The notes under the pieces were generated by a model. The model searched no databases and was not told the DNA's origin. It saw nothing but the letters and a program-made list of their open reading frames with translations. The translations under genes and the position numbers were made by a program. Below, piece by piece: positions 6,168-8,990 of a stretch of 25,494 bases of DNA. Within the stretch, counting starts at the first letter, position 1; each line of letters opens with the position of its first letter. The DNA is from a virus (taxonomy: Duplodnaviria > Heunggongvirae > Uroviricota > Caudoviricetes), in IMG/VR virus record IMGVR_UViG_2703718826_000004; one strand, written 5' to 3'.

Positions 6168-6287
6168 TACGGAAGTGGCCGTAAACTCCACTCTCCGTCC
6201 GTCTTTCTGTACCGTTGCCACCCGTTTTCCTGTCATCAGGTCATGCAGTGCCGCACGGGCAGCGGCAAGTTCTTCCTGTCGAGTCAT
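6168..6287 (-). pseudogene. W: head-tail joining protein gpW, first 40 codons only, joined by deletion to stf sequence
   Basis: The ORF at 5829..6287 begins [40 protein letters not shown], matching recalled lambda gpW 1-40, then reads stf DNA out of frame. The ATG overlaps the terminase A stop, as in lambda. Confidence 0.7.
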
Positions 6288-8209
6288 TCATTCTCTCCGG
6301 ATAAGGCACGGGCGTAATCTGCCAGTGTTTTCTTGTTGGTTGCTGCACCATCCTCTTCCTGCAGGCTCGCCAGCAGTGCACTGAGATTCAGCTGCCAGCG
6401 GGAAATACTGATGCGCAGCGCCGCCAGCGCATAAACGAAGCAGTCGAGTGCCTCATTGCGTCGCTTTTTGCTGTCCCACAGTATTTTTTTCCTGCCATCC
6501 ACCCATTTTTCGACCTGCTCTTCAGCAGTCAGCTGCTGCGCTTCGGTCAGATCAAAAATATCCGGGTTATTCGGGAAGTGAACGGCACCGGGAAGCGGTT
6601 CATCCCCTTCCGGCGTCAGTGTGAAGCGGTTATAAATCTGCTCTTTCGCGGTATCCGTACCGATTTCGGTAAGGTAAACCCCGTTTTTGTTTCGCTTACG
6701 AGGCATGCTGGCCACCGGCTTACCGTAGACGGATGCCCCTTTAATGGGGATCACCCGGAACAGCCCATGCTTTTTCGAGCGTTCATACACAATGGTCGGG
6801 TCAATCCCGCCAGTATCCCAGCAGATACGGGATATCGACATTTCTGCACCATTCCGGCGGGTATAGGTTTTATTGATGGCCTCATCCACACGCAGCAGCG
6901 TCTGTTCATCGTCGTGGCGGCCCATAATAATCTGCCGGTCAATCAGCCAGCTTTCCTCACCCGGCCCCCATCCCCATACGCGCATTTCGTAGCGGTCCAG
7001 CTGGGAGTCGATACCGGCGGTCAGGTAAGCCACACGGTCAGGAACGGGCGCTGAATAATGCTCTTTCCGCTCTGCCATCACTTCAGCATCCGGACGTTCG
7101 CCGATTTTCGCTTCCCACGTCTCACCGAGCGTGGTGTTCACGAAGGTTTTACGTTTTCCCGTATCTCCTTTCGTTTTCATCCAGTCTTTGACAATCTGCA
7201 CCCAGGTGGTGAACGGGCTGTACGCCGTCCAGATGTGAAAGGTCACACTGTCCGGCGGCTCAATCTCTTCACCGGATGACGAAAACCAGAGAATGCCATC
7301 ACGGGTCCAGATCCCGGTCTTTTCGCAGATATAACGGGCATCAGTAAAGTCCAGCTCCTGCTGGCGGATGACGCAGGCATTATGCTCGCAGAGATAAAAC
7401 ACGCTGGAGGGATCATCCGGCGTCCATTTGAGGCCAAACGGCGTCTCTTTATCGCCAAATTTAAGGTACTGCTCCTCCCCGCAGTGCGGGCAGGCAACAT
7501 GAAAACGCATAAAATGCGGGGATTCACTGGCTGCACGCTCAATCTGGCAGGTGCCTCTCACTTTGGGCGTGGAGCCACGGATGGACTTTGGCCAGACCGA
7601 GCCTTCAATACGCTTGTCACCCAGGAACGTCGGAGAGCCTTCCTGTTCAATATCATCATCAAAAGCAGCAAGTTCATCATAACCCGCCACATCCACCGAC
7701 TTTTCACGGTAGTTTTTTGCCGCTTTACCGCCCAGGCACCAGAAGCCACGACCATTGGTGAAACGCTTCATGGTGAGCGTGTTATCCCGGTGCTTTTTGC
7801 CATACCACGGGGCCAGCGCAAGCAGCGAAGGAATATCACGGATGGTCGGCTCAACGTGAGTTTTCATAAAGTTCTCGGCATCACCATCCGTCGGCAACCA
7901 GATAAGGGTGTTGCGCTGCTTATGCTCTATGAAGTAGGCATAAACACCCAGCAGCATTTTGGAATAACCAACACGGGCAGACTTCACCACATTCACCTCA
8001 CGGATGTAGTCGCTGCCCATCGCATTCATGATGGCCCGCTGAAAGGGCAGTGTTTCCCAGCGCCCTTCCTGGTATGCGGATTCTTTCGGGAGATAGTAAT
8101 TAGCATCCGCCCATTCAACGGCGGTCTGTGGCTCCGGCCTGAACAGTGAGCGAAGCCCGGCGCGGACAAAATGCCGCAGCCTGTTAACCTGACTGTTCGA
8201 TATATTCAC
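6284..8209 (-). CDS. A: terminase large subunit (lambda gpA-like)
   Basis: 641-aa ORF, same length as lambda gpA and matching it along the recalled sequence; it overlaps the Nu1 3' end as in lambda. Confidence 0.95.
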
Positions 8210-8729
8210 TCAGCAACCCCGGTATCAGTTCATCCAGCGCGGCTGCTTTGTTCATGGCTTTGATGATATCCCGTTTCAGGAAATCAACATGTCGGTTTTC
8301 CAGTTCCGGAAAACGCCGCTGCACCGACAGGGGGATCCCGTCGAGAATACTGGCAATTTCACCTGCGATCCGCGACAGCACGAAAGTACAGAATGCGGTT
8401 TCCACCACTTCAGCGGAGTCTCTGGCATTTTTCAGCTCCTGTGCGTCGGCCTGCGCACGCGTAAGTCGATGGCGTTCGTACTCAATAGTCCCTGGCTGGA
8501 GATCTGTCTCGCTGGCCTGCCGCAGTTCTTCAACTTCCCGGCGCAGCTTTTCGTTCTCAATTTCAGCATCCCTTTCGGCATACCATCTTATAACGGCGGC
8601 AGAGTCATAAAGCACCTCATTACCCTTGCCACCGCCTCGCAGAACGGGCATTCCCTGTTCCTGCCAGTTCTGAATGGTACGGATACTCGCACCGAAAATG
8701 TCAGCCAGCTGCTTTTTGTTGACTTCCAT
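8184..8729 (-). CDS. nu1: terminase small subunit (lambda Nu1-like)
   Basis: 181-aa ORF starting MEVNKKQLADIFGASIRTIQNWQEQGMPVLRGGGKGNEVLYDSAAV, differing from recalled lambda Nu1 at only a few residues. Confidence 0.95.
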   Translation of the reverse strand: MEVNKKQLADIFGASIRTIQNWQEQGMPVLRGGGKGNEVLYDSAAVIRWYAERDAEIENEKLRREVEELRQASETDLQPGTIEYERHRLTRAQADAQELKNARDSAEVVETAFCTFVLSRIAGEIASILDGIPLSVQRRFPELENRHVDFLKRDIIKAMNKAAALDELIPGLLSEYIEQSG

Positions 8730-8849
8730 TGCTCATTCCACGGACAAAAACAGAGAAAGGAAACGACAGAGGCCAAAAAGCTCGCTTTCAGCACCTGTCG
8801 TTTCCTTTCTTTTCAGGGGGTATTTTAAATAAAAACATTAAGTTACGAC

Positions 8850-8990
8850 GAAGAAGAACGGAAACACCTTAAACCGGAAAATTTTCATAAATAGCGAAAA
8901 CCCGCGAGGTCGCCGCCCCGTAACCTGTCGGATCACCGGAAAGGACCCGTAAAGTGATAATGATTATCATCTACATATCACAACGTGCGT
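8850..8990. other. lambda-type cos site (cosQ-cosN-cosB); cosN cohesive-end sequence at 8907..8918
   Basis: aggtcgccgccc at 8907-8918 is the reverse complement of the lambda cohesive end GGGCGGCGACCT, about 180 bp upstream of the Nu1 start; the flanks match recalled lambda left-end and right-end sequence. Confidence 0.75.

Follow-up and report, generated by a model that had tools for sequence, protein, structure and literature searches.

The DNA analyzed here, a stretch of 25,494 nucleotides referred to throughout as the window, is very probably a copy of the Qin-family defective lambdoid prophage of Escherichia coli, inserted in ydfJ and reduced by deletion to a passive remnant. [quoted passage not shown] This orphan-looking combination of cos and terminase is the usual leftover of lambdoid prophage decay through internal deletion, and such leftovers are already known. 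The idea of a new kind of mobile element was set aside in favor of a single internal deletion combined with ordinary prophage decay.

Identity and layout of the element

Assignment to the Qin family is based on the insertion in ydfJ, the same site as that of Qin in K-12, on the typical gene order, and on near-identity to K-12 Qin (99.2% over window positions 1–4074 and 99.8% over 8201–12362). Both elements share the order ydfK-pinQ-tfaQ-stf'-(terminase)-cos-ynfO-ydfO-gnsB-cspI-lysis-cspB/F-Q-ydfU-rem-hokD-relBE-flxA. All bases of the window could be aligned to annotated relatives, and the prophage measures about 24.3 kb, or about half of the lambda genome. No replication genes were found across the window, which is fully covered by these alignments, and the early/immunity region is missing from the element. 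Unlike K-12 Qin, the window has lost dicA, dicC and dicB and possesses int and xis ORFs that look intact.

The late antiterminator gene Q, ydfT/quuQ (positions 14851–15603, minus strand; identified by the Pfam Antiterm domain and the annotation of relatives), lies upstream of the lysis genes, cos, Nu1 and A and shares their strand; by analogy with lambda, transcription of Nu1 and A would be driven by Q. When the late region was scanned for promoters and terminators, only consensus-level matches were obtained, with fewer promoters than in shuffled sequences, and downstream of Q, too, there was only a consensus promoter match; these matches are given no weight here. Since the early promoters are deleted, expression of Nu1 and A by the element itself is doubtful.

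The cos site

Positions 9280 to 6169 of the window (minus strand) were aligned to lambda, as given in the phage DE3 record (L001), with zero gaps and 51 substitutions (98.5% identity). The ungapped alignment spans the lambda right end, cos, Nu1 and A and extends into W, and there are zero differences from lambda 48167 through bp 52, a stretch that includes cosQ, cosN and I2. The packaging termination signal cosQ, GGGTCCT, which in lambda lies at 48473–48479, is present in identical form at 8942–8948 (minus strand), inside a 13-bp block that is invariant in nine of the nine cos regions aligned. In the literature cosQ is a conserved element of 7 bp (PMC4669245), and cosN is defined as 16 bp (PMC9026076). 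The latter is represented at 8905–8920 (minus strand) by GGGCGGCGACCT (8918–8907) plus two flanking bp on each side, an exact match to lambda, flanks included. I2 (8870–8901, minus strand; lambda bp 18–49) falls within the unchanged bp 1–52 and contains the critical bp 30–35, the role of which has been described (PMC4856287).

Four differences from lambda were identified in the cos region, namely bp 53 C>T (window position 8866), bp 73 A>G (8846), bp 102 T>C (8817) and, at about bp 188, A>G (8732); all four co-occur in the deposited phage PhiR29_1. R3, the main TerS binding site (8854–8869, minus strand; lambda bp 50–65), reads AGGTGTTTCCGTTCTT as compared with AGGCGTTTCCGTTCTT in lambda. The single change within it, at bp 53, lies outside bp 55–63, which are contacted by TerS, and does not involve the critical bp 56, 58 or 59 (PMC9026076); a T at bp 53 is also found in PhiR29_1 and in an Stx1 phage. 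The spacer between R3 and R2, with the predicted IHF site I1 (8811–8853, minus strand), accounts for the changes at bp 73 and bp 102, each of which is the majority allele in the aligned phages. The inverted TerS site R2, AGAAAGGAAACGACAG (8795–8810, minus strand), and the accessory TerS site R1, CTGTCGTTTCCTTTCT (8754–8769, minus strand), are identical to their lambda counterparts. As the alignment is ungapped, the R3-I1-R2-R1 architecture of cosB with R2 inverted, the spacing of its elements and the distance from cosN to cosB are the same as in lambda. An extra G at lambda bp 138 is absent from the DE3 record, from the window and from all aligned phages, and no indel is claimed at this position. 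A terminase of lambda specificity should recognize and cut the cos site of the window, a prediction that is indirectly supported by the presence of the same cosB haplotype in PhiR29_1.

The terminase genes

Nu1/nohA, encoding the terminase small subunit (8184–8729, minus strand), is full length at 181 aa and covers residues 1–164 of the 164-residue Pfam Phage_Nu1 domain (E-value 2e-101). Its product is identical to that of lambda at 178 of 181 residues, with K48R, A75T and L132I as the substitutions; the recognition helix of the winged helix-turn-helix (residues 17–24) and the wing (residues 31–39) are the same as in lambda, and an identical Nu1 protein is encoded by the full-length prophages L011–L015, L017 and L018. 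The large-subunit gene A (6284–8209, minus strand; Pfam GpA_ATPase and GpA_nuclease) is also full length at 641 aa and begins, like that of lambda, with GTG. A total of 639 residues are identical to those of lambda, the exceptions being D608N and D640N, and the codon changes comprise 26 synonymous and two non-synonymous ones. D640N falls in the C-terminal portal-binding tail of A, and the same exact protein is found in complete prophages, which are among the 1094 blocks of the index in which it is listed. Comparison with lambda revealed no frameshifts or stops in Nu1 and A. The earlier note, made from the window's sequence before any alignment, had claimed a lambda-type cos site, its cohesive-end sequence with lambda-like flanks, and a full-length Nu1 and A, and the alignment to lambda bears out these claims, with cosN unmutated, both reading frames and their Pfam domains complete, and the only cosB-region substitutions being those shared with PhiR29_1.

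Structural-gene remains and deletions

The description of the element as headless and tailless was likewise correct. The portal, protease/scaffold, major capsid, tail tube, tape measure and tip genes of a complete lambdoid prophage are all absent, and all that is left of the structural genes is tfaQ, a 40-codon piece of W and the part of stf that encodes its C-terminal two thirds. The W' remnant (6168–6287, minus strand) comprises the first 40 codons of this head-tail joining gene, the encoded residues being those of lambda W (Pfam gpW, 1–41 of 66). The side tail fibre remnant stf' (3883–6167, minus strand) lacks approximately the first 355 codons; it was recognized by its tail fibre Pfam domains, and its longest ORF is located at 3883–5868. 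The tail fibre assembly gene tfaQ occupies 3308–3883 (minus strand; Pfam Caudo_TAP and annotation of relatives).

Comparison with strain AW1.7 placed the deletion junction at 6167–6168, where W codon 40 runs out of frame into stf at approximately codon 356. The junction is clean relative to AW1.7, and the missing 27.1 kb includes the portal and protease genes, D, E, FI, FII, Z, U, V, G, T, H, M, L, K, I, J and lom. The motif CTTCCG occurs near both breakpoints; the join is offset from it, which ruled out a clean microhomology event. The exact W'-stf junction was found in 0 of 5426 complete E. coli genomes; the GTDB species representatives likewise lack it, and the gene index has no entry for the 152-aa ORF created by the fusion. 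Because no other genome searched contained this junction, the age of the deletion is not directly datable. The ORF at the right-hand deletion was found in four draft contigs, of which the stretches retrieved end short of the cos region.

We propose as ancestor an intact phage in which Qin-type late and lysis genes were combined with a cos site, terminase, heads and tails of lambda type. All head and tail-shaft genes were probably lost in a single illegitimate deletion that ran from codon 40 of W to approximately codon 356 of stf, and the dicA/dicC/dicB early region was probably lost in a second one. The cos site, Nu1 and A would look functional since they lie outside both deletions and belong to an allele that has had essentially no time for decay.

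Origin of the packaging module

The earlier note had regarded the contrast between the lambda-type module and the Qin-type remainder as a sign of mosaic origin. Taken further, this would mean that an otherwise unrelated Qin-type cryptic element, already defective, had received the cos-terminase block by recombination. It is true that the block is 98.5% identical to lambda and that the adjoining late region (ynfO, ydfO, gnsB, the csp genes and the lysis genes) is not lambda-like, and segment exchange between defective prophages and infecting phages does occur. However, K-12 Qin possesses the same cos-nohA allele at the same place: positions 8201–12362 are 99.78% identical to MG1655, including cos and the Nu1 allele (R48, T75, I132). 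The same junction between a Qin-type late region and lambda-type structural genes is also found in full-length prophages, since L013, L015, L016 and that of AW1.7 display a Qin-type late region, then the exact Nu1 and A, and then complete lambda head and tail genes. The same cos is likewise present in full-length prophages that have a Qin-type late region. AW1.7 is moreover co-linear with the window over the supposed boundary (100% identity over 6284–8990 and 99.93% over 6168–18953) and has retained genes for head and tail. Such mosaicism was already present in the intact ancestor, as it is in lambdoid phages generally, and was not acquired later. We therefore consider secondary insertion of the block highly improbable, and the argument from mosaicism did not survive the comparison. 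The cos-nohA segment shared with K-12 Qin and the identical arrangement in full-length prophages instead indicate that the packaging module is the Qin phage family's own, and hence that the window derives from that family by deletion.

K-12 Qin itself has undergone a larger deletion that begins at the Nu1 C-terminus (window position 8201) and removes all of A, whereas the window keeps A and 40 codons of W; K-12 Qin and the window are further set apart by six cosB-region substitutions. DLP12 of K-12 (cos-nohD-A') is likewise a defective lambdoid remnant in which a lambda-type cos and a functional nu1 are kept and the head genes deleted, but it lies elsewhere in the chromosome and has a truncated A.

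The module is present at a coverage of at least 80% in 3261 of 5426 complete E. coli genomes (about 60%), and at the ydfJ locus the deletion endpoints differ among other strains. Retention of the cos-proximal end in many independently deleted lineages (K-12, P15-25, 789, LD39-1 and others) could in principle reflect selection instead of chance, and from it one might argue that cos-Nu1-A has been domesticated for a host benefit, for example by interfering with lambdoid phages that enter the cell or by serving them as a rescue reservoir. Yet several of these lineages have a truncated A, or even a truncated Nu1, and the genes are therefore unprotected; the allele that is intact in the window is identical to one in a prophage bearing head and tail genes, which fits recency; and no defence-type genes were found associated with the module. 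Domestication is thus exceedingly improbable in our judgment, and we continue to read the window as a passive remnant.

Packaging and mobilization

The earlier note had also suggested that the element might be packaged or transduced with the aid of a helper lambdoid phage. The first half of this proposal stands, in that the cos site should be recognized and cut; completion of a particle is a different matter, as the element, with its one cos, lacks both replication genes and an early/immunity region. Helper-dependent packaging is accordingly possible at the initiation step only. During growth of a lambda-specificity phage in the cell, or in the event of Q-dependent late transcription, terminase would, as in lambda, bind cosB (R3-I1-R2-R1) and nick cosN. 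It would then remain on the Nu1 side and translocate DNA toward A, stf', pinQ, ydfJ' and the chromosomal flank. Packaging would not be properly terminated, because a second cos is absent. In lambda the second cos must lie roughly one genome length away, within a packaging window of 75–105%. Termination requires cosQ and cosN at the downstream cos and depends on concatemers, and completion of a particle requires that the second cos be in the same orientation (PMC4669245; PMC9026076). What would most probably follow is cutting at cos, packaging that proceeds in one direction and aborts, and recombination with lambdoid phages that infect the cell; in practice this would amount to a cos-dependent double-strand break and homologous exchange with such phages. 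A precedent is provided by DLP12, the cos-nu1 segment of which recombines with lambda at high frequency in a cos-stimulated manner, and the nu1 of which works in lambda (PMC3945230).

A more far-reaching proposal is that the remnant behaves like a cosmid or a satellite, with a co-resident or infecting lambdoid helper giving the proheads and tails and with the element or the flanking chromosome being packaged from its own cos and transduced. The intact lambda-specificity cos with its own terminase, together with the intact int and xis ORFs, is compatible with this proposal, and a head-to-tail dimer of the 24.3-kb element would be packageable by size. Potential lambda-type helper prophages are common (a median of two matching places per genome), and cos-bearing PICIs are indeed mobilized in a helper-dependent way (PMC9026076). 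The element has a single cos, however, while termination depends on a downstream cosQ and cosN; with no replication module and the early and immunity region deleted, concatemers are not expected; and in the packaging direction cos is followed by only 7.6 kb of the element, so that cargo packaged in situ would be mostly chromosome and would end without a cos cut. Neither an Rpp-like redirecting function nor a PICI architecture was observed. On balance we regard such behavior as quite unlikely. It is also very unlikely that induction of a co-resident lambda-type prophage mobilizes the remnant, either as rare packaged head-to-tail dimers or by an in situ start at cos into the ydfJ-ydfI flank; were it to do so, the retention of A in intact form would matter functionally and would be no accident. 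A start of the latter kind would be the cos-phage analogue of lateral transduction. In the limited literature set consulted, nothing usable was found on single-cos chromosomal packaging ("docL") or on packaging of Qin/nohA.

Gram-negative cos-type PICIs and laboratory cosmids likewise have a lambda-like cos, lack capsid genes and need helper proheads and tails (PMC9026076). PICIs respond to induction by excision and replication, they redirect the helper TerS to a different cosB by means of the Rpp that they encode, and they have no TerL of their own; in contrast, the window has no replication module, a lambda cosB and its own complete terminase. A PICI or satellite identity was rejected on the grounds that the replication module is lacking and the dicA/dicC region is deleted.

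Compared with lambda itself, then, the window differs by four cosB-region substitutions, by the lack of head and tail genes downstream and by a Qin-type late region upstream. The finding has little importance beyond the correct annotation of Qin-type remnants. Such remnants are relevant chiefly because lambdoid phages that infect the cell can recombine with them and because a lambda-type terminase should be able to cut the chromosome there.

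The cos site and terminase genes

Between the stop codon of ydfJ, at which the window begins, and that of the integrase gene, at which it finishes, the gene order is ydfJ', ynfT/ydfK, pinQ, tfaQ, stf', W', A, Nu1, cos, ynfO, ydfO, gnsB, ynfN, cspI, rzpQ, rrrQ, ydfR, holin, cspB, cspF, Q (ydfT), ydfU, rem, hokD, relE, relB, ydfV, flxA, an ISNCY transposase, a truncated exonuclease gene, xis and int (primes mark partial remnants). The features tested for Qin were all found, and the element is the Qin cryptic prophage, matching the annotation in RefSeq relatives and K-12. Objects of this kind are well known; the RefSeq relatives already annotate 'nohA' and a 'phage terminase large subunit family protein'.

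The cohesive-end sequence GGGCGGCGACCT was located by sequence search at 8918..8907 on the minus strand. An earlier note had described lambda-like flanks around it, and the minus strand was aligned locally to lambda, represented by the record of DE3, a phage that derives from lambda and has its cos annotated. The alignment paired window 9280..6169 (minus strand) with lambda 48141, through cos, to approximately 2750, with no gaps and 51 substitutions (98.5%), and from lambda 48167 to bp 52 (lambda numbering) there were no differences. The cosQ heptamer, GGGTCCT at 8948..8942 (minus), is identical to lambda. With cos subsites defined as in Feiss et al. (2015; PMC4669245), Murialdo and Feiss (2022; PMC9026076) and PMC4856287, identity extends to cosN (8920..8905, minus), to I2 including its critical bp 30–35, and to the R2 and R1 16-mers. 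R3 (bp 50–65; 8869..8854, minus) has one change, at bp 53, which falls outside the bp 55–63 contacted by the TerS DNA-binding domain and is not among the critical positions 56, 58 and 59 (PMC9026076). Further differences were observed at bp 73 and bp 102, both within the spacer that contains I1, the IHF site; another, at about bp 188, lies three bases ahead of the start codon of Nu1. With no gaps in the alignment, the cosN–cosB spacing, known to be critical, is preserved.

When eight phage cos regions were aligned with this one, all four variant bases were found together in the deposited phage PhiR29_1 (PV340556), and three of the four in an Stx1-converting phage. Two relatives that still have lambda-type head genes (L017 and L018) match the window exactly over the 300 bases ahead of Nu1, and the cosN-to-Nu1 stretch is identical in the full-length prophages L013 and L015. 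Every component of a lambda-type complex cos that was sought is present, and, judged from its sequence, this cos is a natural allele of the working type. The interval 6284–8990 of the earlier note was correctly placed, as it runs from the A stop codon to just upstream of cosQ.

ORF scanning and matches to the lambda proteins identified Nu1 (181 aa; 8729..8184, minus) and A (641 aa, GTG start; 8209..6284, minus), and both are full length, as had been claimed: the ORFs are complete, and the Pfam matches to Phage_Nu1, GpA_ATPase and GpA_nuclease are full-length. Nu1 differs from lambda by K48R, A75T and L132I, with the recognition helix (residues 17–24) and wing (31–39) unchanged, and A differs by D608N and D640N. 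The features tested for a lambda terminase gene pair were thus all found in the sequence. The exact 641-aa A was retrieved from 1094 blocks in the gene index; contigs examined with it include prophages with the whole set of W, portal, protease, D, E, FI, FII, Z, U, V, G, T and H, and of eight such loci checked, seven have the exact Nu1.

Loss of the head and tail genes

Lambda homology ends within W, the first 40 residues of which are those of lambda. The W frame then passes, out of frame, into the side tail fibre gene (stf), creating a 152-aa arginine-rich junk ORF (5829..6287). The window is co-linear with the Qin relative in E. coli AW1.7 (NZ_CP073624), at 99.93% over 6168–18953 and 99.5% over 2753–6167. 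Since these two blocks meet exactly at 6167|6168 and their breakpoints lie 27.1 kb apart in AW1.7, the morphogenetic genes were lost in one deletion. Lying between them in AW1.7 are portal, protease, D, E', an insertion of Mu-like sequence, FI to J (with an IS2), lom and ~355 codons from the start of stf. Comparison of the join with AW1.7 ruled out a clean microhomology event. The description of the element as headless and tailless is hence borne out, as all head and tail-shaft genes are gone; the structural-gene remains are W', stf' and tfaQ, and the gene set of a complete prophage is not present.

Searches of 5426 complete E. coli genomes and of the GTDB species representatives did not recover the exact W'|stf junction (6167–6168), and the 152-aa ORF is absent from the gene index. 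Found nowhere else searched, this junction marks the window copy as a private deletion variant.

In AW1.7 itself (21904–29429 of that locus), the Qin major capsid gene is split by the Mu-like segment of ~7.8 kb, which carries a Mor activator, a tape-measure gene and a Gp27-family gene, and J is split by IS2.

Relationship to other Qin prophages

The earlier note had suggested a mosaic origin from the contrast between the lambda-type block and the Qin-type remainder. This was not borne out: in L013, L015, L016 (full-length prophages) and AW1.7, the same Qin-type late region (DUF968, Q, cspF, cspB, ynfU, holin, ydfR, lysozyme, rzpQ, cspI, ynfN, gnsB, ydfO, ynfO) continues straight into Nu1, A, W, portal and the genes beyond. 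A later graft of a lambda block onto a defective element is rejected by this same join in full-length prophages. The block of lambda-type packaging and structural genes belongs natively to Qin-family phages, and the boundary with non-lambda-like sequence at about 9280 is ordinary lambdoid mosaicism from an intact ancestor. The cos-terminase module is extremely common in E. coli: 4609 of the 5426 complete genomes have some match to 6284–8990, and in 3261 a single place covers 80% or more of it, AW1.7 among them with 100% identity.

The Qin of K-12 MG1655 is 99.2% identical to the window over 1–4074 and 99.78% over 8201–12362, the latter taking in cos and a shared Nu1 allele (R48, T75, I132), but its deletion starts earlier, at 8201, replacing the last Nu1 residues (NohA, 189 aa) and removing A. 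Deletions at the Qin locus join Nu1 to stf in K-12, the inside of A to stf in P15-25, W to stf in the window, W to the tape-measure gene (H) in strain 789, and portal to stf in LD39-1. These differing internal deletions (L009, L010, L021, L026 and hits H51–H58) all retain the cos-proximal end.

Other features of the window

Relative to P15-25 and 789, a second deletion at 21907|21908 removed dicC and dicA (the immunity region), ydfABC, dicF, dicB, ydfD, neighbouring DUF977/YdaT genes and the 5' end of the exonuclease gene. A 661-aa ORF (21870..23855, plus) crosses this junction, and the same product occurs in four draft contigs. Rfam matched a sok antitoxin RNA (104 bits) at 20948–21119 (minus), adjoining the ISNCY transposase ORF (19561..20874) and far from the annotated hokD (~17.4 kb), a location with no reported sok match; small ORFs near the match gave no Pfam match. 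Rfam also placed an IS009 RNA inside tfaQ (3342–3540, minus) and, ahead of cspI and cspB, 5' UTRs of the cspA thermoregulator type (10791–11176 and 13685–14077, minus). The rzpQ ORF (11443–11889, minus) encodes 148 aa, a form shared with one draft contig (L022), against 165 aa in annotated relatives. The 5' part of ynfO (DUF3950; 9118–9280, plus) is homologous to the lambda right end at ~48303–48141, a stretch with no annotated gene in the DE3 record; a ynfO-like remnant may lie beside cos in lambda.

Packaging and the fate of the terminase genes

Terminase of lambda specificity could come from the element itself, if late transcription downstream of Q were activated, or from a co-resident or infecting lambda-type phage. 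By analogy with lambda (PMC4669245; PMC9026076), it would assemble with IHF on R3-I1-R2-R1, nick cosN, stay on the Nu1-side end and dock on a helper prohead, and DNA would be translocated towards A, stf', pinQ, ydfJ' and then the chromosome. For termination, a second and identically oriented cos must supply cosQ and cosN, and the normal substrates are concatemers (PMC4669245; PMC9026076). Concatemers are not expected here because the element carries a single cos and lacks both replication genes and an early region. Lambda packages only ~75–105% of its own genome length, and unexcised prophages yield defective single-cos ('docL') particles. The prophage is ~24.3 kb (1276–25494), near half a lambda genome, so that a head-to-tail dimer would approach one lambda length; this is probably coincidence. 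A PICI or satellite was rejected as an identity, the element being without a replication module, having its own TerL and carrying the phage's own cosB. Of the helper-dependent packaging that had been proposed, the intact recognition and cleavage sequences and terminase ORFs stand, and the single cos and the missing replication genes and early region weigh against it. Mobilisation of this half-lambda-sized remnant by a helper, or packaging of a lateral type that takes in the ydfJ flank, faces several structural obstacles and is very improbable.

Recency is the simplest reading of the intact terminase genes: the window differs from the AW1.7 copy, which has heads and tails, by one base in 3.2 kb and eight in 12.8 kb. 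The synonymous bias of A relative to lambda (26 synonymous and two non-synonymous codon changes) reflects selection during phage life, not after the deletion, and since A or Nu1 is truncated in sister lineages, the genes are not protected. Q-independent lambda 'qin' recombinants reportedly showed, decades ago, that the late region of Qin, with its cos, can work in lambda. The cos-nu1-A' segment of DLP12 recombines with lambda ~100-fold more than other prophage homologies, half of the junctions adjoin cos, and DLP12 nu1 works in lambda; the documented experimental role of such remnants is as recombination partners (PMC3945230).
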